Both the position numbers and the translations under genes were made by a program. A stretch of 61,767 nt of DNA, filler included, from Chthonomonadaceae bacterium (GTDB lineage Bacteria > Armatimonadota > Chthonomonadetes > Chthonomonadales > Chthonomonadaceae), in the NCBI GenBank assembly GCA_035650735.1. It is 5 parts of 5 records of this genome, joined end to end, with 100 filler letters (N's around TTAATTAATTAA, not from the genome) between each part and the next. Parts side by side here need not be neighbours in the genome. Positions count along the whole stretch, not along the records: positions 20,317 to 42,062 come from DASRGZ010000088.1; 4 more parts are not named here. One strand, 5' to 3'. This document shows positions 20,317 to 49,959 of this stretch, piece after piece. How positions within the stretch are numbered: the first letter of the stretch is position 1; each line of letters opens with the position of its first letter. The notes below the pieces were generated by a model, which searched no databases, was not told where the DNA came from, and was given only the letters and a program-made list of their open reading frames with translations.

Positions 20317-20466
20317 ATCGAGGATGCGGGCGGCCACACTATCGTTCTCGCGCACCAGGCCCAGCAGCAGGTGTTCGGTGGAAACATAGTTCTCGCCGAG
20401 ACGTCCGGCCTCTTCCTGAGCGAAGAACACAACGCGCCTTGCCCGCTCGGTAAATCGCTGCCACAT
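20317..20466 (-). CDS. clpC: ClpC-type ATPase, N-terminal fragment cut by contig end
   Basis: MWQRFTERARRVVFFAQEEA..VSTEHLLLGL. Confidence 0.75.
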
Positions 20467-20623: not shown

Positions 20624-21148
20624 CTAGACGCGCAAGAGGATGCGCCAGAGTGGCTTGCGCAGCGGCGCCTCCGCAGAGGCCTTGGGACGCTGCGATGCTG
20701 CTGCCGGGGGAACCGAGGAGACATCCCTTTCGCCCCGAATGGCGGCGCGCACGGCCTCTGCCGTGATGCCCGCTCCCCGCAGAACGCTGCCTGCAATGCC
20801 TTCTTCTTCGAGCACAAGGCCCAGCAGGACGTGGGTGGTATCCAGTTGTCGGTGGCCCAGCGCCTCCCGCTGTTTTTCCGCCAGCTTCAGTACCGCCTGG
20901 GAGCGCGAGGTTAATTTCAGGCCCGACTCCATGGCATGATTGCCGCGTCGGCAGCGGCTTTCACAAGTCTTATAGAGAGCGCCACAATCGTAGCCCAGAG
21001 ATCTCAGGAGGCGCGTGGCGGAATTGCGATGGCGTAATAGCCCCAACAACAAATATTCGGTGTGGACGAAGCGGTGGTGGTGTCGTCCTGCGGCCGCTTG
21101 CGCGCTGGCGAGCAGGCGATCCACGCCCTCAGTTTGACCGGGTCGCAT
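20624..21148 (-). CDS. Stand-alone Clp N-terminal domain protein
   Basis: Two Clp_N repeats (VHTEYLLLGLL; LDTTHVLLGLV..GIAGSVL) with no ATPase domain. Confidence 0.8.
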   Translation of the reverse strand: MRPGQTEGVDRLLASAQAAAGRHHHRFVHTEYLLLGLLRHRNSATRLLRSLGYDCGALYKTCESRCRRGNHAMESGLKLTSRSQAVLKLAEKQREALGHRQLDTTHVLLGLVLEEEGIAGSVLRGAGITAEAVRAAIRGERDVSSVPPAAASQRPKASAEAPLRKPLWRILLRV

Positions 21149-21193: not shown

Positions 21194-22438
21194 TTAGTGG
21201 GCGCGCAGCGCAGCCTCTAATTCCTGCACGACCCGATCACAGTCCGCCTGAGTGACGACCAGCGGCGGGACAAAGCGCAGGATGGTGTCGCCGATGGCAT
21301 TGGCGACGATGCCGGCCTCCAGCAAGTGGCGCAGGATAGCTTTCGCCGTAGGTGTCGCAAGTTCCATGCCAACCATAAGCCCGACGCCGCGTACTTCGCT
21401 CACCCTGTCAGAGAATTGACGCTGGAGCTCGCTCAGGCGGCTGAGGAAGTAGGTGCCGACTTGGGCGGCGCGCTCCATCAAGCGCTCACTCTCAAGCACG
21501 TCCAGCGTCGCAAGCGCGGCGGCGCAGGCGAGCGGCTGACCTGCAAACGTCGAGCCGTGATCGCCGGGGGCGAGCGTGGCAGCCGCTTCGCCGCGCGCCA
21601 GGCAGACGCCCATCGGGAAGCCGTTGGCGATGCCCTTGGCCATCGTTACGATGTCGCCGGTGACGCCCGCGCCCTGGCTGGCAAGGAAGTGGCCGGTGCG
21701 TCCCATACCCGACTGCACCTCATCCAGGATCAGCAGCACCTCCGCCTCGTCGCAGAGGGCGCGCACGCCCGCCAGAAACTCCGGCGTGGCGATCCGGATG
21801 CCGCTCTCGCCCTGAATCGGCTCGATCAGCACGGCGCAGGTGCGCTCGGTAATCAGGTCGTCGAGCGCGTGCAGATTGTTCAGCGGCGCATAGCGAAAGC
21901 CCGGCACGAGCGGCGTAAAGGGAAGCTGATATTTGGGCTGCGCCGTCGCCGTGACGGTTGCCAGCGTGCGCCCGTGGAACGAGCCTTCGAAAGTGACGAT
22001 CTCGTGGCAGGGCTCACCACGCTTGCGCTTGCCCCACTTCCGCGCGATCTTGATGGCGCACTCGTTGGCCTCCGCGCCTGAATTACAGAAGAACACCTTC
22101 TCCATGCCGGTCAGCCCGCAGAGCCGTTGGGCGAGGGGAGCCTGGAGCGCATTGTGGAACAGGTTGCTGATGTGCGTCAGCGTCTGCACCTGCCTGGCGA
22201 TGGCTCCGGCGACGTGCGGATGGCTGTGCCCGACGGAGACGACAGCGATCCCGCCCAGGAAGTCGAGGTACTCGCGCCCAGCGCTGTCCCACAGTTTCGC
22301 GCCTTCACCGCGCACGAACACGATCGGCTGACGCGCGTAGGTTCCCATGACATACTCGCGATCCAGCGCCATGATCTGCTCGGCGTTTACGTTTGTGGGG
22401 GCATCCATATTCTGCGGATGCACTAGCTCTACTGTCAC
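21194..22438 (-). CDS. argD: Acetylornithine aminotransferase
   Basis: FFCNSGAEANE, SFHGRT, DEVQSGMGRTG, AKGIANG, HGSTFAG; in arg operon. Confidence 0.93.
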   Translation of the reverse strand: MTVELVHPQNMDAPTNVNAEQIMALDREYVMGTYARQPIVFVRGEGAKLWDSAGREYLDFLGGIAVVSVGHSHPHVAGAIARQVQTLTHISNLFHNALQAPLAQRLCGLTGMEKVFFCNSGAEANECAIKIARKWGKRKRGEPCHEIVTFEGSFHGRTLATVTATAQPKYQLPFTPLVPGFRYAPLNNLHALDDLITERTCAVLIEPIQGESGIRIATPEFLAGVRALCDEAEVLLILDEVQSGMGRTGHFLASQGAGVTGDIVTMAKGIANGFPMGVCLARGEAAATLAPGDHGSTFAGQPLACAAALATLDVLESERLMERAAQVGTYFLSRLSELQRQFSDRVSEVRGVGLMVGMELATPTAKAILRHLLEAGIVANAIGDTILRFVPPLVVTQADCDRVVQELEAALRAH

Positions 22439-22553
22439 GGTCTTCTCTCCTTCCTCGTTTTCGGGTAGTGTACCCATAGAGAGTTGATACTTCGTCGCCG
22501 ATGACCTTATCAACTCTGTAGAGGGACACTACCCGTTTTCGGGTGACTCGGTA

Positions 22554-23420
22554 TCAACTTCGTAGCATGGTGCCGATGCCGGTATCGGTGAAAATCTCGA
22601 TGAGCAGGGCATGGGGGAGGCGGCCGTCAATCAGGTGCGCGCGCTCGACACCGCCCTCAACGGCGGTAATGCACGCCTCCAGCTTCGGGATCATGCCGCG
22701 CTCGGCGGCGCCGCTGGCAAGCATCTGCTCGGCGCGGGCCACATCCATTTCATGGATGAGCGAGGACTTGTCGCTGTAGTCGGCATACAGCCCCTCCACG
22801 TCCGTCAGGATCACCAACTTCACCGCGCCGACCGCTGCCGCGATGTGCCCGGCAACGTGGTCGGCGTTGACGTTGTAGCTTTCGCCGTCCGGCCCGATAG
22901 CCACCGAGGAGATCACCGGAATATAGCCCTGTTCACCCAATAAGTTTAAGATTTCGGCGTTAACCTGCGCGACTTCGCCGACGTAGCCCAGATCGCCTTG
23001 CGGCGACTCCATCTTGTAGGCCATGATCAGGTTGGCGTCCTTGCCGCTCAAGCCCACCGCTTTCGCGCCTTGCTTGTTCAAGAGCGAGACGATGCCCTTG
23101 TTGGTCTTGCCGGCCAGCACCATCTCGACGATCTCCATCGTGGCCGCGTCGGTGACGCGCAAGCCGCCCACAAAGGTCGGCTCGTGGCCCATCTGCTTCA
23201 TCAGCGCGCTGATCTCCGGCCCGCCGCCGTGCACCAGGATCGGGCGGATACCGACGTAATGGAGCAGGGCGATGTCCTGCATGACCTGTGATTTCAGGGT
23301 TTCATCAATCATGGCGTTGCCGCCGTACTTGACGACGATGGTTTTGCCGTAGAAGCGGCGCAGGTAGGGCAGGGCTTCAATCAGGACGGCGGCGCGCGCC
23401 GCCGGGTCTAAGGTCGTCAC
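22554..23420 (-). CDS. argB: Acetylglutamate kinase
   Basis: VVKYGGNAM, VHGGGPEI, NVNAD, GMIPK. Confidence 0.96.
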   Translation of the reverse strand: MTTLDPAARAAVLIEALPYLRRFYGKTIVVKYGGNAMIDETLKSQVMQDIALLHYVGIRPILVHGGGPEISALMKQMGHEPTFVGGLRVTDAATMEIVEMVLAGKTNKGIVSLLNKQGAKAVGLSGKDANLIMAYKMESPQGDLGYVGEVAQVNAEILNLLGEQGYIPVISSVAIGPDGESYNVNADHVAGHIAAAVGAVKLVILTDVEGLYADYSDKSSLIHEMDVARAEQMLASGAAERGMIPKLEACITAVEGGVERAHLIDGRLPHALLIEIFTDTGIGTMLRS

Positions 23421-24640
23421 GTATGATACTCCGCGTTGATTTTAATATAATCGTAACTGTAGTCGCACGTCCAGACGGTGGCCGACTCCTCGCCGGTGTT
23501 CAGGTCCAGGATGATCTGTACTTCCCGGTTGGTCAGGTAATCGTGGGCGGCCTGTCGGTCGAACTCCACGCTGCGGCCCTCAGAACAGACTATGAAATCG
23601 CCAATGCGGGCCTCCACGCGGTTAGGGTCGAAGGGCACGCCCGCGCGCCCGGCGGCCATCAGCAGGCGGCCCCAATTCGGGTCGTTGCCGAAGAGGGCCG
23701 TCTTGACCAGGGGCGACTCGGCGATGGTCTTGGCGATGCGGTGCGCTCCGGCCTCCGTCGCCGCGCCCTGCACGACGATCTCGACCAGCTTGGTCGCGCC
23801 CTCGCCGTCGCGGGCGATCTCTTTTGCCAGTGAAACAGACAGCCGCGTCAGCGCCGCCACGAAATCTTCGAACGCTGCGCCCTGCCGGGAGATCTCGCCC
23901 TGGCCCATGCCTGAGGCGAGCAGAAGGCACATATCGTTGGTGCTGGTATCGCCATCCACCGTCACGCTGTTGAAGGAGGGGGCGACCGCGCGCGCCAGCG
24001 CCTCCTGGAGCAGCTCGGCGGGCAGGCGCGCGTCGGTGGTCAGGAAGGCCAGCATGGTCGCCATGTTCGGCGCGATCATGCCGGAGCCTTTGCACATCCC
24101 GCCGAACCGGATCGGCGCTACCCACTGGTCGGAGTCAGCTTCGACGGCGCGCAATTTCGGGTAGGTATCGGTCGTCATGATAGCTCGTGCCGCCGTCAGG
24201 TCGGTATCGCCATCGCGGTCGAGCGCGCCGACCGCCGCCTCTATCCCGGCCCGCAATTTCTCCATCGGCAGGAGGTGGCCGATAATGCCGGTGGAGGCGG
24301 TCAGCACGGCATCGGGAGGAACGCTCAGGTGGCGGCTGACCCACTCGGCCAGCGTGCGGTTGTCGGCATCGCCCTGCTCGCCGTTGCAGGCGTTGGCGTT
24401 GCCGGCATTGATGAGGACAGCCCGCGCCGTGCCACCCCGCACGATACGCCGTGAATACTGCACGCACGCCGCCTGGACCCGGTTCGTGGTGAAGACGCCC
24501 GCGACCGTCGCCTCGCTATCGCTGACCAGCAGGCACAGGTCTTCGCCCTCCGTCTTGAGGCCGGCGCGCACGCCGGAGGCGACAAAGCCCTCCGGGAACG
24601 TGACGCCCGCGCCTTCCTGCTCCTTCCAGACCGTGATCAT
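23417..24640 (-). CDS. argJ: Ornithine acetyltransferase / N-acetylglutamate synthase
   Basis: KGSGMIAPNMATML, VDGDTSTND, DGEGATK, YIKINAEYHT. Confidence 0.96.
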   Translation of the reverse strand: MITVWKEQEGAGVTFPEGFVASGVRAGLKTEGEDLCLLVSDSEATVAGVFTTNRVQAACVQYSRRIVRGGTARAVLINAGNANACNGEQGDADNRTLAEWVSRHLSVPPDAVLTASTGIIGHLLPMEKLRAGIEAAVGALDRDGDTDLTAARAIMTTDTYPKLRAVEADSDQWVAPIRFGGMCKGSGMIAPNMATMLAFLTTDARLPAELLQEALARAVAPSFNSVTVDGDTSTNDMCLLLASGMGQGEISRQGAAFEDFVAALTRLSVSLAKEIARDGEGATKLVEIVVQGAATEAGAHRIAKTIAESPLVKTALFGNDPNWGRLLMAAGRAGVPFDPNRVEARIGDFIVCSEGRSVEFDRQAAHDYLTNREVQIILDLNTGEESATVWTCDYSYDYIKINAEYHT

Positions 24641-24653
24641 GCGTTTCTCCTTG

Positions 24654-26555
24654 CTAAACCCGCGTGACGCGAGGCGGACTGCTAATCGGCTCTACCTCTT
24701 CCTGCGGTCCCATGGGCAGCCTCTCCTCTTCTCGATACGGTTCCTCGCCTTCGACCTGGAACTGCGCGGCATACAGGCGGGCATAGACGCCCTCTAGAGC
24801 CAGAAGCTCTTCATGGGTGCCGCGCTCCACGATCCGGCCTCGCTCCAGCACAAGGATCTGGTCGGCGGCCAGGATCGTCGAGAGGCGGTGCGCGATGGCG
24901 AACGTGGTTCGGCCCGCCATCAGAGGAGTCAGTGCCGCCTGGATCAGCCGCTCGGATTGGGTATCGAGGGCGGAGGTCGCCTCATCGAGGATCAGAATGC
25001 GCGGGTTCTTCAGAATAGCGCGGGCGATAGCAATGCGCTGCTTCTCGCCGCCCGACAGCTTGTAGCCGCGCTCGCCAACGACGGTGTCATAGCCGTCGGG
25101 GAGAGAGGCAATATGGTCGTGGATGGCGGCGGCTTTGGCGGCGGCGATCAACTCGTCGTCGGTCGCATCGGGACGCCCATAGCGCAAATTGGCCCGGATC
25201 GTGTCGTGGACTAAGTACGTCTCCTGGGTCACTATCCCGATGATCCGCCCCAGCGACTCCAGCGTGACCGCGCGCACGTCGTGCCCGTCAATGGTCACGC
25301 GGCCCGCGTCCACATCGTAGAGGCGCGGAATCAGGTAGGTCAACGTCGTCTTGCCCGCACCGGAGGCGCCGACGAGGGCGACCAGATCGCCGGGCCGGGC
25401 CGTAAACGTGATGTCATCCAGGGTCGGCGTCTCCTGATCCGGCTGGTAGCGGAAGGAGACGTGCTCGAAGGCGACCTCGCCGCGCACCGTGTGCGGGTCG
25501 AGCGGCACGGCATCCGGCGCGTCCACGATCTCCTGCTTCATATCCAGGTACTCGAAGATGCGGTCGAAGAGGGCCAGCGCGCTGGTCACCTCCACCTGGA
25601 CGTTCAGGAGGTTGGTGAGCGGGAAGAAGAGACGCCCTTGCAGGGAAGTGAAGGCGACGATTGTGCCCAGGGTCAGGTGCCGGTCGCCGCGCGCCACAAT
25701 CAGGTAGCCGGCGAGCCAATAGACGAGAATCGGGGTGACCGAGAACGTCAGGCCGATCAGGTTGAAGAAGTAGCGCATGATCATGGACTGCTTGATCTGG
25801 GAGTCGGTCAGCGCCTGGTTCTCGGTCGTGAACTTCTCCAGGGCGAGCGCCCGCCGCCCGCTGACCTTGGTCAGCAGCACGCCGGAGACGGAAAGGGTCT
25901 CCTGCATGGTCGCGTTCAGGTCGGCAAGCTGGGCCTGAACCCGGCTGCGCACGCCGCGCGCGTAGCTGCCGATCCGGCCCGCCAGCAGCGCGAAGAGCGG
26001 CAGAACACCAACGCTAAGCACCGTCAGGCGCCAGTCCATGTAGAGCATGGCGATCAGGGTGGAGAGAACGGTCGTAACGTTGGAGAGCACGTTGGCCGCC
26101 GTGTCGCTGACGACCGACTGGACGCCGCCGACGTCGCTGATCAGCCGCGACTGGATCTCGCCGGTGCGCGTGCCGGTGAAGAACCGCAGTGACATGCCCT
26201 GCAAATGGTCGTAGAGTTGGTTGCGCAGGTCGCGCATGATGTCCTGGCCGACCACGACCGACAGATAACCGTAGCCGAGCGCGGCGGCGGTGCCGCCGAT
26301 CGTGGCCGCGAGCGTGTAGATCGTATACCGCGTGACTACGCCCAGGTCGTGCCCGAGCAGCCCCTGATTGACGATGGTGCGCAGGTAAAACGGCGACAGC
26401 AGCCCCAGCGCAGAGGAGACGAGCACGGCCAGTACGGTCCAGACAAGCTGGGCCTTATAGGGAACGAAGGCGCGGACGACCCGTTTTGCCGTTCCTGGAT
26501 GGAGCGGCTTTCGTTGGCCGTCGGACCGTGGACCACCCATCATGCGTACGCTCAC
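24654..26555 (-). CDS. ABC exporter, fused permease + ATPase (MsbA/Sav1866-like)
   Basis: TM domain; GASGAGKT, LSGGEKQR, ILDEATSALD. Confidence 0.93.
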   Translation of the reverse strand: MSVRMMGGPRSDGQRKPLHPGTAKRVVRAFVPYKAQLVWTVLAVLVSSALGLLSPFYLRTIVNQGLLGHDLGVVTRYTIYTLAATIGGTAAALGYGYLSVVVGQDIMRDLRNQLYDHLQGMSLRFFTGTRTGEIQSRLISDVGGVQSVVSDTAANVLSNVTTVLSTLIAMLYMDWRLTVLSVGVLPLFALLAGRIGSYARGVRSRVQAQLADLNATMQETLSVSGVLLTKVSGRRALALEKFTTENQALTDSQIKQSMIMRYFFNLIGLTFSVTPILVYWLAGYLIVARGDRHLTLGTIVAFTSLQGRLFFPLTNLLNVQVEVTSALALFDRIFEYLDMKQEIVDAPDAVPLDPHTVRGEVAFEHVSFRYQPDQETPTLDDITFTARPGDLVALVGASGAGKTTLTYLIPRLYDVDAGRVTIDGHDVRAVTLESLGRIIGIVTQETYLVHDTIRANLRYGRPDATDDELIAAAKAAAIHDHIASLPDGYDTVVGERGYKLSGGEKQRIAIARAILKNPRILILDEATSALDTQSERLIQAALTPLMAGRTTFAIAHRLSTILAADQILVLERGRIVERGTHEELLALEGVYARLYAAQFQVEGEEPYREEERLPMGPQEEVEPISSPPRVTRV

Positions 26556-26652: not shown

Positions 26653-27696
26653 TCACGGCCACAGCCCTCCGAAGTCCAGGCCGGCGGTCTCCTCCAGACC
26701 GCACATCAGGTTCATATTCTGGATGGCCTGGCCCGCCGCGCCCTTGACGAGGTTATCTATCGCGGAGAGAACGGTGACCCGGTTGGTACGCTCGTCTACG
26801 GCCAGGCCGATATGGCACATGTTGCTGCCGAGCGTGTGCTTTGTCGCCGGCAGGTGGTCGGCAACGACGGCAACGAAGGGCGCATTGGCATAAAATTCTG
26901 TGTAAAACCTTAACAAATCGTTCGTCTTCACCGGCTCGATCAAGCCGGCGTAGCACGTCGCCAGGATGCCCCGCGTCATGGGAATAAGATGTGGCGTGAA
27001 GGAGATCCGCACCTCCCGCCCGCTCTGCTGCGAGAGGACCTGCTCGATCTCAGGCGTGTGGCGGTGCGTTCCGGCGACCTTATAGGCGCTGACGCTCTCG
27101 TTGGCCTCCGGGTAGTGGTAATCCAGGCCGAACTTCGCCCGTCCCGCGCCGGAGACGCCCGATTTGGCGTCCACGATAATCGTCGCCGGGTCAATCAGGC
27201 GCTTGGCGAGCAGTGGGGCGAGCGCCAGGATCGTCGCCGTCGGATAGCAGCCGGGATTGCCGACGAGCTGGGCGCCGCGTATCGCCTCCGCATAGAGCTC
27301 CGGCAGGCCGTAGACGGCTTTCGCGCTCCACTGCGGGGCCGCGTGCGCCGTCTTATACCACTGCTCGTAGGTGGCCGTATCCCGGAACCGGAAATCGGCG
27401 GAGAGGTCAATGATCTTGCAGCCGGCTTCCAGCAGGTGCGGCGCGGTCTCCATCGCCTTGCCGTTCTCCTGGGCCAGAAACACGACATCGCACTGAGCGA
27501 CCTCCGTGCCGTCGCCGTAGCCGGAAAAGCGCAGGTCGGACTGCTTTGCCAGGCCGGGAAACGCGGCGGAGAGGGGCTTGCCCGCGTAGGTTTCCGAAAC
27601 CGCCATTCGCAGCCTTACCTGCGGGTGGCGCAATAACAGGCGTACCAGCTCTCCGCCGCCATAGCCCGACGCTCCCACAACGCCCACTTCCACCAT
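26653..27696 (-). CDS. argC: N-acetyl-gamma-glutamyl-phosphate reductase
   Basis: GASGYGG, NPGCYPT, SGVSGAG, DNLVKGAAGQA. Confidence 0.96.
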   Translation of the reverse strand: MVEVGVVGASGYGGGELVRLLLRHPQVRLRMAVSETYAGKPLSAAFPGLAKQSDLRFSGYGDGTEVAQCDVVFLAQENGKAMETAPHLLEAGCKIIDLSADFRFRDTATYEQWYKTAHAAPQWSAKAVYGLPELYAEAIRGAQLVGNPGCYPTATILALAPLLAKRLIDPATIIVDAKSGVSGAGRAKFGLDYHYPEANESVSAYKVAGTHRHTPEIEQVLSQQSGREVRISFTPHLIPMTRGILATCYAGLIEPVKTNDLLRFYTEFYANAPFVAVVADHLPATKHTLGSNMCHIGLAVDERTNRVTVLSAIDNLVKGAAGQAIQNMNLMCGLEETAGLDFGGLWP

Positions 27697-27723
27697 AACC
27701 CAAACTCCTCTCCCAAAAGATTC

Positions 27724-27834
27724 CAACAGGATGAACAGGATTTCTCAGGATTTACAGCATAAGGGCCAGAGAGAGACACAAGCAGGGCTTGTACGAATGC
27801 TCAATTAGTTTTAGAAATCTTGTTCATCCTGTTG
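27724..27834. repeat. CAGGATGAACAGGAT inverted-repeat element in the argC leader
   Basis: Same terminal repeats as 11233-11441 with an unrelated interior. Confidence 0.75.
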
Positions 27835-27863
27835 AAGGTTTTTCTCTAGCGCAGCGGGTGGTT

Positions 27864-27899
27864 AAAATAAAAACAGCCGCGCGGAAGGAACCGGCGGCT
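27864..27899 (-). terminator. Attenuator terminator of the arg operon
   Basis: AGCCGCCGG-TTCCTT-CCGCGCGGCT followed by GTTTTTATTTT on the minus strand. Confidence 0.75.
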
Positions 27900-27997
27900 T
27901 ACGAGGGTTAAAAATGAAACAAGCCGCAAGCCCCCGCTTTCGGGTCAGCCCACGGCTCTCCAATCGGCAACAGACGTCCAGCGACGCGCGGCGTGGG

Positions 27998-28069
27998 CTA
28001 GCTCCCGAGACGCTCGCGGCGACGACGGCTCACAAAGGGATAGGCGGTTGTCGCGCTGTCTGCCGACAT
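27998..28069 (-). CDS. Arg-rich leader peptide MSADSATTAYPFVSRRRRERLGS
   Basis: TAAGGA SD; codons CGT CGT CGC CGC GAG CGT; lies between promoter and terminator upstream of argC. Confidence 0.75.
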   Translation of the reverse strand: MSADSATTAYPFVSRRRRERLGS

Positions 28070-28100
28070 AAAAACAGTATCCTTACGGAAAAGTAGAGCC

Positions 28101-28129
28101 AGTATACCTCGGAAGCGGCGGGCTGTCAA
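28101..28129 (-). promoter_or_regulatory. Sigma70 promoter of the arg operon
   Basis: TTGACA-17 bp-TATACT. Confidence 0.8.
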
Positions 28130-29760
28130 CCCTCCGAGGCCGATTTTGCAGGATTTCCCGGTTCCGGACCCCAGCCGCCCCCGCCCGGCGTACGGATGGA
28201 GAGCACGGTTCCGGCAGGGCAGTGGCGGCTCCATTTGCCCGGCATCGGCTGTGGGGCCTGGCCTGGCTCGGTTAATGTCTCCGCACCCGGCGTTCCCGGT
28301 GCTCCGCCGTTGGCGCCAAAGGGCGGGTGCGTGCGCCGCTCGGCAAGCAGGGAGACGCGCGCCTCGGTGAGCAGTTCGATCCGGCGTATCAGCCCGTCGC
28401 CGCCCCGATGGAGGCCCGCGCCGCCCGTGCCCTGAGCGATGCTGTATTCCTGGACGCGCAGGGGATAGTGCGATTCCAGGGCCTCGACGGGCGTGTTGCG
28501 GGTGTTGGTCATGTGCGTGTGGATGGCGGAAGCGCCGTCGCCTGCCGGAGAGGCGCCCGCGCCGCCGGCCAGCGTCTCGTAATAGGCGAAGGGACGGTGG
28601 CGGAGGGCGTCATAGCTGCCGATGGTCAGGTTGTTCATGGTGCCCTGGCTGGCGGCGGGCAGACGGTCGGGCGCGGCCTGGGCCAGCGCTCGGAGCAGCA
28701 CGTCCACGATGCGCTGGGAGGTCTCCACGTTCCCGGCGGCGACGGCGGCGGGAAAGCGCGCGTTGACGATGCTGCCTTCCGGCGCGATGACGGCGATGGG
28801 CGCAAAGCAGCCCTCGTTGGTGGGTATCTCCTCGTCTACCAGGCAGCGCACCAGGTAGTAGCAGGCCGAGCGCGTGATGGCCTCTGTGGCATTGAGCGAC
28901 CCCTTTACCTGCGGCGCGCTGCCGGTAAAGTCGAAGATCGCCTGCCCGGAGCGCCGCAGCGTCGCGGTGACCGTGATGGGGATGTTCGCTGTGCCCGCGC
29001 CGTCATCGTCCAGGACGTCAGTGGCTGTGTAGGTTCCGGGCGGCAGCGAGGCCAGCGTTTTGCGCACGACCTCTGCCGCGTAGGCGATATTCTCGCCTGT
29101 GCGCTGTCGGAACTCTTCCAGGCCATACCGTTGCGCAAGCGCCTGTAAGCGCCGTATTCCCGTCTCGTTGGCGGCGACCTGGGCGGAGAGGTCGCCTCGC
29201 CGTTCGGCGGGCGTGCGCGAGTTGGCGCAGACAAGGTTTAACACGTCCTCGCGTACCTGGCCGCGTTCCACCAGGCGCAGCGGCGGCAGGATCAGCCCCT
29301 CGTGGAACAGCTCGGTCGAGAGCGGCAGTGAACCCGGCGACAGCCCACCAATGTCGGCGTGATGCGCCCGGCTGGCAACGAAGCCCAACAGCGTTCGCGA
29401 GGCGGTTTTGGGGCTTTGCCCTCCACTGAGGTAGACAGGCGCGACGAGAGTCAGGTCTGGCAGGTGGGTGCCGCCGATGCGCGGGTCGTTGCACAGCCAC
29501 ATGAGGCCGGGACGCCAGGGGATAGCGTGGCGGAGCCGTTGCAGCATCAGGGGCATCGCGCCGAGATGGACGGGGATATGCGCGGCCTGGGCCAGCAGGC
29601 GTCCGCGCGCGTCGAAGAGGGCGCAGGAGTGATCCAGCCGCTCCTTGATGTTGGGCGAATAGGCGGTACGTTCCAGCGTAGCGCCCATCTCCTCGGCCAC
29701 CGCCGAAAGCAGATGCCGCCACACCTCCACCTGCACCGGATCAAACGTCTGTCGGCTCAT
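28126..29760 (-). CDS. Hydantoinase B / oxoprolinase family protein
   Basis: RTAYSPNIKERLDHSCA, GGTHLPD, AHHADIGG, GNVETSQR, TPGGGGWG. Confidence 0.92.
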   Translation of the reverse strand: MSRQTFDPVQVEVWRHLLSAVAEEMGATLERTAYSPNIKERLDHSCALFDARGRLLAQAAHIPVHLGAMPLMLQRLRHAIPWRPGLMWLCNDPRIGGTHLPDLTLVAPVYLSGGQSPKTASRTLLGFVASRAHHADIGGLSPGSLPLSTELFHEGLILPPLRLVERGQVREDVLNLVCANSRTPAERRGDLSAQVAANETGIRRLQALAQRYGLEEFRQRTGENIAYAAEVVRKTLASLPPGTYTATDVLDDDGAGTANIPITVTATLRRSGQAIFDFTGSAPQVKGSLNATEAITRSACYYLVRCLVDEEIPTNEGCFAPIAVIAPEGSIVNARFPAAVAAGNVETSQRIVDVLLRALAQAAPDRLPAASQGTMNNLTIGSYDALRHRPFAYYETLAGGAGASPAGDGASAIHTHMTNTRNTPVEALESHYPLRVQEYSIAQGTGGAGLHRGGDGLIRRIELLTEARVSLLAERRTHPPFGANGGAPGTPGAETLTEPGQAPQPMPGKWSRHCPAGTVLSIRTPGGGGWGPEPGNPAKSASEG

Positions 29761-29892
29761 GGCAAGAGAATTATTTCGCATTCCGGCAGGTCAAACCTTC
29801 CGAACAGCCAAATTAGACAGCCGCGATAGTGATGATTACAAGGTACTTCCGTTGTCGGCGCTTTTGCGTTTTTGGCGTGCGCAGGCCACCGA

Positions 29893-49922: not shown

Positions 49923-49959
49923 GTTTCAATCCTCGCCCGGCCCGAAGACCGAGCGCTAC
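49923..49959 (-). CRISPR. Solitary 37-nt CRISPR-type repeat (no array)
   Basis: GTAGCGCTCGGTCTTCGGGCCGGGCGAGGATTGAAAC: GT start, internal hairpin, ATTGAAAC handle. Confidence 0.6.

Follow-up and report, generated by a model that had tools for sequence, protein, structure and literature searches.

The usual controls of arg genes are repression by ArgR and the T-box. In fungi, the arginine attenuator peptide (arg-2/CPA1) is a conserved peptide that stalls the ribosome at high free arginine and blocks scanning. The logic of classical leader-peptide attenuators is described in the available parts of PMC5314783, PMC2659441 and PMC1183508, the last of which also explains biased control codons by selective charging. 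For arginine genes, control by T-boxes is stated in the available part of PMC1262725, where no leader-peptide attenuator is given upstream of arginine operons in Actinobacteria. The literature that we searched contained no leader-peptide transcription attenuator for arginine biosynthesis, and none was found in the accessible portions of PMC8632094, PMC5314783, PMC2965389, PMC2659441, PMC4833913, PMC13096801 and PMC11857589, although large tables of predicted attenuators could list arg genes.

The locus described here lies in a window of 61,767 nt (the whole stretch of DNA analysed) from the genome of a Chthonomonadaceae bacterium (GCA_035650735.1; G000 below), for which a first-pass annotation had proposed an arginine attenuator upstream of argC. 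As read across the genomes compared, the element, about 230 nt long, is a real and conserved leader. We suggest, with a probability of about 0.8, that it is a ribosome-mediated transcription attenuator that reads the charging of tRNA-Arg(GCG) and opens the arginine-biosynthesis operon when arginine is short. The leader-peptide type proposed earlier is supported by the frame, the codons, the spacing, covarying helices and the lack of ArgR and of a T-box at the leader, but the wiring proposed with it was incomplete.

The leader uORF and its control codons

The promoter, the SD and the 23-aa uORF with the RRRRER stretch were found on the strand and at the place given by the first-pass annotation (Table 1). 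The promoter agrees with the consensus at 11 of 12 positions and is the sole match within 1 kb, vs 0.1 expected in shuffled sequences. Transcription is predicted to start at about 28094, and the upstream gene has its stop codon within reach of the promoter, overlapped by the -35 box. A TTGAC-type promoter pattern was present upstream of 42 of the 46 leaders examined, a count that omits four leaders lying too close to the locus end. A genome-wide scan for a promoter, an SD, a short ORF with a single-amino-acid run and a hairpin with U tract, its criteria having been chosen after the element had been seen, gave one match in 6.5 Mb.

Table 1. Positions of the leader elements and neighbouring genes, counted along the window
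Feature	Positions	Strand	Remarks
Sigma-70-type promoter, TTGACA-17-TATACT	28101..28129	-	-35 box 28129-28124, spacer 17 nt, -10 box 28106-28101
SD-like AAGGA of the leader ORF	28080..28084	-	10 nt before the ATG
Leader uORF, 23 aa, MSADSATTAYPFVSRRRRERLGS	27998..28069	-	ORF predicted from sequence; ends RRRRERLGS
Control codons RRRRER = segment 1	28010..28027	-	28020-28012 able to pair with segment 4
Segment 2, GCCCACG, 5' arm of antiterminator 2:3	27992..27998	-	overlaps the uORF stop codon
Segment 2b, candidate pause-hairpin partner of the Arg codons	27982..27990	-	66% paired; 116 of 1000 shuffles as good
Segment 3, AGCCGTGGGC	27948..27957	-	3' arm of 2:3 or 5' arm of T1
Segment 4, GCTTGCGGCT	27922..27931	-	pairs with 3 (T1), 5 (blocks T2) or 1
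Predicted terminator T1	27909..27957	-	three tandem G-U in the 3:4 stem; top stem with GAAA loop; U tract 27922-27909 imperfect
Predicted terminator T2	27864..27900	-	one bulge in the 5:6 stem (27900-27875), of which segment 5 is the 5' arm; U tract 27875-27864
REP-like palindromic spacer, T2 to argC	27715..27863	-	outside the conserved switch; 205 BLAST pieces in the genome
argC, first gene downstream	26653..27696	-	TIGR01850 above cut-off; SD GAGAGGAG 27712-27705
MsbA-like ABC exporter gene, between argC and argJ	24654..26555	-	below all cut-offs shown
argJ 24640-23417; argB 23420-22554; argD ORF 22513-21194	21194..24640	-	NCBIfam cut-offs passed
Clp_N-domain gene 21148-20624; second Clp_N-like ORF beginning at 20466 and truncated at the contig end	20317..21148	-	
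Hydantoinase-B/oxoprolinase-like gene upstream of the leader	28126..29781	-	CapB-like, below cut-off

The control stretch of the uORF reads CGT CGT CGC CGC for the first four Arg residues, followed by GAG and a further CGT. All 50 leaders found (see below) have 3-5 Arg in a 7-codon window, and 197 of their 208 Arg codons (95%) are CGY. Within these, CGT (129/208) and CGC (68/208) compare with 5% and 36%, respectively, in argC of the same loci; a part of this CGY bias may also serve RNA pairing. Across leaders the Arg residues are kept and the third codon positions vary between C and U. The leader peptide is unconstrained save for R-R-(R)-x-R, where x is E, Q, A, V, P or D, and its N-terminal part varies freely in both sequence and length. 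The ten codons preceding the Arg run are free of stops in 48 of 49 leaders, vs 20 and 36 in the other frames; likewise, a start codon with an SD-like sequence that is open to the Arg run was found in frame in 24 of 42 leaders, vs 2 and 1.

These data bear on the view that the leader is an RNA-only switch (a protein-binding leader or a riboswitch), in which the CG-rich "Arg codons" are kept because they pair and the ORF is there by chance. The conservation of segment 1 can be partly structural, as this segment is similar to segment 3 and pairs with segment 4, and T2-like hairpins stand alone before argC in some genomes without the leader. However, the bias in open frames and in-frame starts, the placement of the variation at third codon positions and an Arg-to-segment-2 distance that fits the ribosome footprint make this view highly improbable.

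The same peptide data can be set against sensing by the peptide itself. R/K-x-R/K is a macrolide arrest motif, and RRR-x-R is conserved here, so that R-x-R in the exit tunnel might let the uORF respond to free arginine or ornithine, or to a drug that binds the ribosome, and not to uncharged tRNA. An Arg-containing leader peptide that works through ribosome pausing is described for Salmonella speF in the available part of PMC6386406. Against this, the peptide outside the Arg run is conserved in neither sequence nor length, the leader is found only before argC, and the codon choice is confined to one tRNA. Furthermore, a stall here would switch the operon on, which is the opposite of what a biosynthesis operon needs if high arginine were the cause of the stall. 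We regard peptide-based sensing as very unlikely, and the metabolite-sensing arrest peptide class (SpeFL, TnaC and AAP type) was rejected because the N-terminal peptide is not conserved.

The tRNA for CGY codons in G000 carries the anticodon GCG and not ACG (L196:94-168, G000:C214), and tRNA-Arg(GCG) was also found at all loci of relatives in two sets, 30 of 30 (L198-L227) and 3 of 3 (L235-L237). E. coli decodes CGU/CGC by means of an ICG tRNA. We infer that CGU is read by G-U wobble of this tRNA; according to the available part of PMC3711424, most bacteria use an ICG tRNA. No clear TadA was found in G000, whose only PF14437 match is, on reading its sequence, a 377-aa RibD-like ORF; short deaminases occur in some relatives. 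Among the 50 tRNAs called in G000 there was no tRNA-Arg(UCG), though CGA makes up 6% of Arg codons.

In addition, the uORF starts about 9 nt after the -10 box in L098, L099, L102, L103, L105, L118, L162-L164, L166 and L171. These starts coincide with the predicted transcription start or lie no more than a few bases away from it, and they appear to represent a form of the attenuator that is leaderless or nearly so. In the leaders from outside the order that have a visible promoter (n = 10), the start codon lies at the predicted transcription start.

Alternative pairings, two predicted terminators and ribosome position

Six RNA segments are conserved among the leaders. The pairing of GCCGCGAGC (28020-28012) with GCTTGCGGC (27931-27923), 9 of 9 positions with one G-U, was present as first reported, as were the alternative pairing of GCTTGCGGC with AAGCCGC (27900-27894, in the 5' arm of T2) and the U-tailed terminator. 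The element then taken for segment 2 does form these pairings but is in fact segment 4, the 3' arm of T1, a terminator that had been overlooked. The supposedly single U-tailed terminator is thus the second one, T2, and the best-covarying switch, 2:3 vs 3:4, had been missed. The pairings 1:4 and 4:5, presented as the alternative pairings, exist but would form a second layer acting on T2.

Covariation was computed on a MAFFT alignment that had not been fitted to the structure, with L004 (segments 3-4 missing) excluded from the pair counts. Helix 2:3 (27998-27992 with 27954-27948) was paired in 95.9% of cells, with 17 two-sided changes vs 5.7 in shuffled data; one of its pairs switches from A-U to G-C in 9 leaders of 7 genera, and it was 96.3% paired in the 23 leaders outside the building set of the sequence-only model. 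The corresponding values were 91.4% paired and 13 vs 3.0 for helix 3:4 (T1), 91.7% and 49 vs 16.2 for helix 5:6 (T2), and 87.7% and 19 vs 9.5 for helix 1:4. None of 500 shuffles reached the covariation of any of these four helices; the shuffles ignore kinship and the relatives are not independent, so the counts overstate independence. The core of helix 4:5 (4-5 bp) is nearly invariant, and 75% of cells are paired over 11 positions. This helix is not provable by covariation because its core hardly varies.

Segment 4 is an imperfect complement of T1 in all 49 leaders. Its departures improve the pairing with segment 5 in 40 leaders and worsen it in 7, and improve the pairing with segment 1 in 36 and worsen it in 11. 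The median gains are -3.4 kcal/mol (segment 5) and -3.9 kcal/mol (segment 1), vs -1.0 and -0.1 kcal/mol with shuffled partners. Helix 1:4 has mismatches at two positions, in 11 and 16 of 49 leaders, and is broken by a single mismatch in the same-genus L002. A 1:2 pause hairpin was evaluated in two registers (73.6% and 66.4% paired), neither of which was clearly above shuffles, and segment 1 pairs better with segment 4 than in this hairpin. The role of the conserved 1:4 helix is less clear than that of the 2:3/3:4 switch.

T2 is present in 47 of 49 leaders; L021 and L023 have T1 as their sole terminator. In most leaders the 12 nt after T1 include at least 7 U, and in L024, L036, L046 and L170 the tract is poor. 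With an imperfect tract in the window's leader as well, T1 may terminate weakly or serve only as a sequestering hairpin. A strict terminator scan listed no terminator at the leader (T2 is bulged and T1 has an internal loop), and the folding of the whole leader was not unusually stable compared with shuffled sequences (z = -0.69).

The spacing from the last Arg of the run to segment 2 is 20-23 nt in 47 of 50 leaders. With a ribosome on the Arg codons (A site on Arg), helix 2:3 was predicted to form (P>0.5) in 44 of 49 leaders, vs 13 of 49 when it had moved four codons beyond the run. With a ribosome placed on the stop 2:3 was excluded by construction, only the RNA 3' of the ribosome being free and the footprint being assumed. 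When 2:3 was held, 4:5 formed in 43 of 47 leaders. The ORF runs through segment 2 in 21 of the 50 leaders, with the stop 12-19 nt beyond the start of segment 2, so that the "off" geometry differs in those leaders.

At equilibrium, T1 and T2 dominate in the window's leader at every ribosome placement, and even a ribosome on Arg leaves T1 the favoured fold in 34 of 49 leaders. Folding at equilibrium under ribosome masks does not discriminate, because the E. coli trpL control behaves likewise under the same treatment (P of the terminator 0.97). Since the terminators win at equilibrium, the "on" state would have to be a kinetic trap and not the equilibrium fold. Rough estimates of the refolding barrier were 17 kcal/mol here for 2:3 to T1 (median 13) and 15 kcal/mol here for 4:5 to T2 (median 14); the value for trpL was 5.8. 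Just before segment 6 appears, three states lie within 0.3 kcal/mol. Helix 1:4 is conserved, but it beats 4:5 at equilibrium in only 11 of 47 leaders and not in the window's own.

At the level of sequence, the promoter, the uORF, the Arg run, the spacing, helices 2:3, 3:4 (T1) and 5:6 (T2), and the pairing of segment 4 with segments 1, 3 and 5 are established features of the leader. It thus has an Arg-codon leader ORF, an intrinsic terminator structure, an exclusive antiterminator and a spacing consistent with ribosome position. The following course of events is proposed for them. When arginine is plentiful, the ribosome would reach the stop codon and cover segment 2; with this segment covered, T1 (3:4) and T2 (5:6) would form and transcription would end before argC. 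When arginine is short, the ribosome would stall on the CGU/CGC run about 20 nt upstream of segment 2, the emerging segment 3 would be captured by segment 2, and T1 would be unable to close. Segment 4, being freed, would then pair with segment 5, so that T2 could not close either, and RNA polymerase would read into argC-J-B-D and probably argF-G-H. The least certain step concerns bare Arg codons, on which segment 1 could capture segment 4 and leave T2 free; if it does, only a ribosome sitting on the Arg codons themselves would permit readthrough. Attenuation by Arg-tRNA through 2:3/3:4 is, in our view, highly likely, and the 4:5 relay onto T2 is probable, while the 1:4 fail-safe is put forward tentatively.

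A simpler arrangement, close to that of the first-pass annotation, would have only T2 terminate, with 3:4 and 1:4 merely sequestering segment 4 and the Arg-stalled ribosome freeing it (via 2:3) to open T2. The cleaner U tract of T2 here, the poor T1 tract in several relatives and the two-sided changes in 1:4 are consistent with it; moreover, 4:5 drops by more than 0.3 in 20 of 47 leaders once segment 1 is freed, and it rises in none. However, the U-rich tract that follows T1 in most leaders and the two leaders in which T1 is the sole terminator make it unlikely that T1 does not terminate. In any case, the sensing logic would be unchanged and only the stopping point would differ.

Distribution, operon and the scarcity of ArgR

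The DNA upstream of argC was read in 50 of the 58 genomes having an ArgC match, and a sequence-only model built from 26 aligned leaders was used to search 68 genomes of the order. It matched 44 of them at E up to 0.01. In 39 of these genomes there was a single credible leader, with E no higher than 3.2e-6 in 38 of them and accepted by eye in G013; five genomes with weak matches only were dropped, leaving 29 of 68 without a credible leader. Outside the order, the leader was found in 4 of 7 genomes of one family and at 7 further loci titled Armatimonadales, Capsulimonadaceae or Armatimonadota. The total is 50 Armatimonadota genomes (39 in the order and 11 outside), no two leaders being identical. 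Conservation of the Arg run and covariation in relatives, which had been named earlier as a check on the attenuator, are thus borne out by 50 leaders with covarying helices. argC lies downstream in 47 of them and the remaining three run off the contig; no leader was seen other than before argC. The nearest named relatives of ArgC belong to Chthonomonadaceae/Chthonomonadales of Armatimonadota, and an ArgC search of plasmids gave nothing useful.

The weak matches that were dropped comprised 11 places (E 5e-4 to 0.0097) in the order search and 2 in the outside-family search; on reading, L167, L168, L172, L177, L178 and L179 had no Arg uORF before argC. Further copies of the full model were absent from G000, where a model without the Arg codons gave a best other match of E 0.037, which argues that the RNA frame is not reused there for other amino acids.

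Two kinds of variant loci were observed. In L004 (G010), the leader before argC keeps the promoter, an RRRCER uORF, segment 2 and T2, and segments 3-4 are absent; T2 is predicted to form there wherever the ribosome sits. This leader could be degenerate, misassembled or rewired. In L022, L027, L039 and L040, from genomes without the leader, T2-like GCCGC(C/A)GG hairpins with no uORF lie just before argC and are possibly remnants left after loss of the attenuator.

The first-pass annotation gave the downstream genes as argC-ABC-argJBD. The arg genes of this series pass NCBIfam cut-offs, but the ABC gene was seen beside argC only in the window's genome (1 of 69 argC loci with short flanks, 0 of 7 longer loci of relatives); other relatives have different inserts between arg genes. 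In the same-genus L234 the operon extends beyond argD and runs on a single contig as argC-J-B-D-clpN-(clpN-argF)-argG-argH. In G000, argF, argG and argH lie on another contig (G000:C170), whose end continues the ORF cut at 20317, and no separate leader was found before argF-G-H, where an uninterrupted Clp_N-coding frame extends as far as the contig end. It is likely that the operon goes on, on G000:C170, with a Clp_N-ArgF fusion, argG and argH. Given this continuation and the one-contig gene order of L234, the whole pathway is likely under the control of the switch.

An apparent fusion of ArgF to an N-terminal Clp_N double repeat (PF02861 + OTCase) was observed in G000, G001, G020 and G056 and not in G031 or G012; the fusion loci are window 20317-20466 with L197:3047-4336 (G000:C170), and L234, L229 and L232. 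Clp_N domains bind phospho-arginine in ClpC, and the fusion together with the stand-alone Clp_N gene (20624-21148) could form an arginine-related regulatory module. On the other side of the leader, the hydantoinase-B/oxoprolinase-like gene is also found beside argC in several relatives. Palindromes related to the REP-like spacer occur at the same place in L004, L016 and L025. Elsewhere in the window, a single CRISPR-DR9 repeat match was noted at 49923-49959.

The presence of argR had also been proposed as a check. No ArgR (PF01316, PF02863) was found in G000, which is 97.6% complete, and the ArgR regulon was rejected for this reason. ArgR was found in 1 of 61 relatives, in none of the 4 leader carriers of family f29 and in 2 of 151 genomes of the phylum; the positive controls of these searches were detected. 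The sole ArgR among the 61 relatives (G009:C471:18-1346) lies on a small contig beside a divergent second argC (39% identity), in a genome that is 70% complete and also has the leader; this contig is likely foreign DNA. Many genera of the order are without both the leader and ArgR.

The T-box class was rejected since RF00230 gave no match at the leader. Nothing in Rfam reached the gathering score there, the only matches being weak ones to unrelated hairpins (E up to 10). Four T-box-like leaders just below the Rfam cut-off (L185-L188) were observed elsewhere in G000, none of them before arg genes; on reading the translations, the genes downstream look like those for an Asp/Asn-tRNA synthetase, ilvB, valS and thrC. 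A translational attenuator with RBS occlusion (rbfL, ermC type) was rejected because T2 ends 24-901 nt before argC across the measured loci (180 nt here and 24 nt in the same-genus L002).

As a tentative extension of the attenuator reading, one Arg-codon uORF might drive two serial terminators through segment 4 as a three-way hub (pairing with 3, 5 or the Arg codons), forming a double lock. The whole pathway would then open only with a ribosome on the Arg codons, and would close at T2 if translation is absent or stalled for another amino acid. Such a lock might replace ArgR across two Armatimonadota classes, be tuned to wobble reading of CGU by tRNA-Arg(GCG), and exist in SD-led and near-leaderless forms.

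Comparison with known systems

With the 50 covarying examples, arginine and the Armatimonadota would join the range of classical attenuation, and an Rfam-ready alignment would be at hand. The wiring of the tandem-terminator relay was not found described for leader-peptide attenuators in the literature searched; it would make the difference between on and off sharper, and the switch may thereby respond specifically to where the ribosome stalls.

With the classical attenuators (trpL, hisL, leuL, thrL and pheL), the leader shares a short uORF with a run of codons for the product of the pathway, the competition of a 2:3 antiterminator with a 3:4 terminator, biased codons and, as predicted here, readthrough upon a stall; its equilibrium behaviour is that of E. 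coli trpL. It differs in that the signal is arginine, two serial terminators are joined by the 4:5 relay, and a conserved helix of the Arg codons with segment 4 takes the place of a clear 1:2 pause hairpin. Further differences are the lack of an Rfam match and a phylum nearly without ArgR, and the function here is a predicted one.

ArgR and the Arg T-boxes serve the same regulatory goal, and the T-box too reads uncharged tRNA, but no ArgR was found in this genome and no T-box at this leader. The fungal AAP is likewise a uORF that controls an arginine-biosynthesis gene; it differs in being eukaryotic and in its opposite sensing principle.

Among sensors that use Arg codons, two bacterial uORFs are the nearest, each with another output. 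In the Salmonella speF leader, orf34 likewise has consecutive Arg codons, and pausing at low arginine alters the folding of the leader; according to the available part of PMC6386406, however, the gene controlled encodes an ornithine decarboxylase, outside arginine biosynthesis, and the control involves Rho, RBS sequestration and RNase G, with no intrinsic terminator switch. S. aureus rbfL, as described in the accessible portion of PMC13009471, is likewise a bacterial uORF that senses arginine via tRNA-Arg charging and ribosome pausing. It differs in acting on translation by covering the next RBS, in repressing under limitation, in its AGA/AGG codons and in its target, a biofilm regulator. In contrast, the uORF here stops about 300 nt from argC, and its predicted output is the antitermination of biosynthesis genes.
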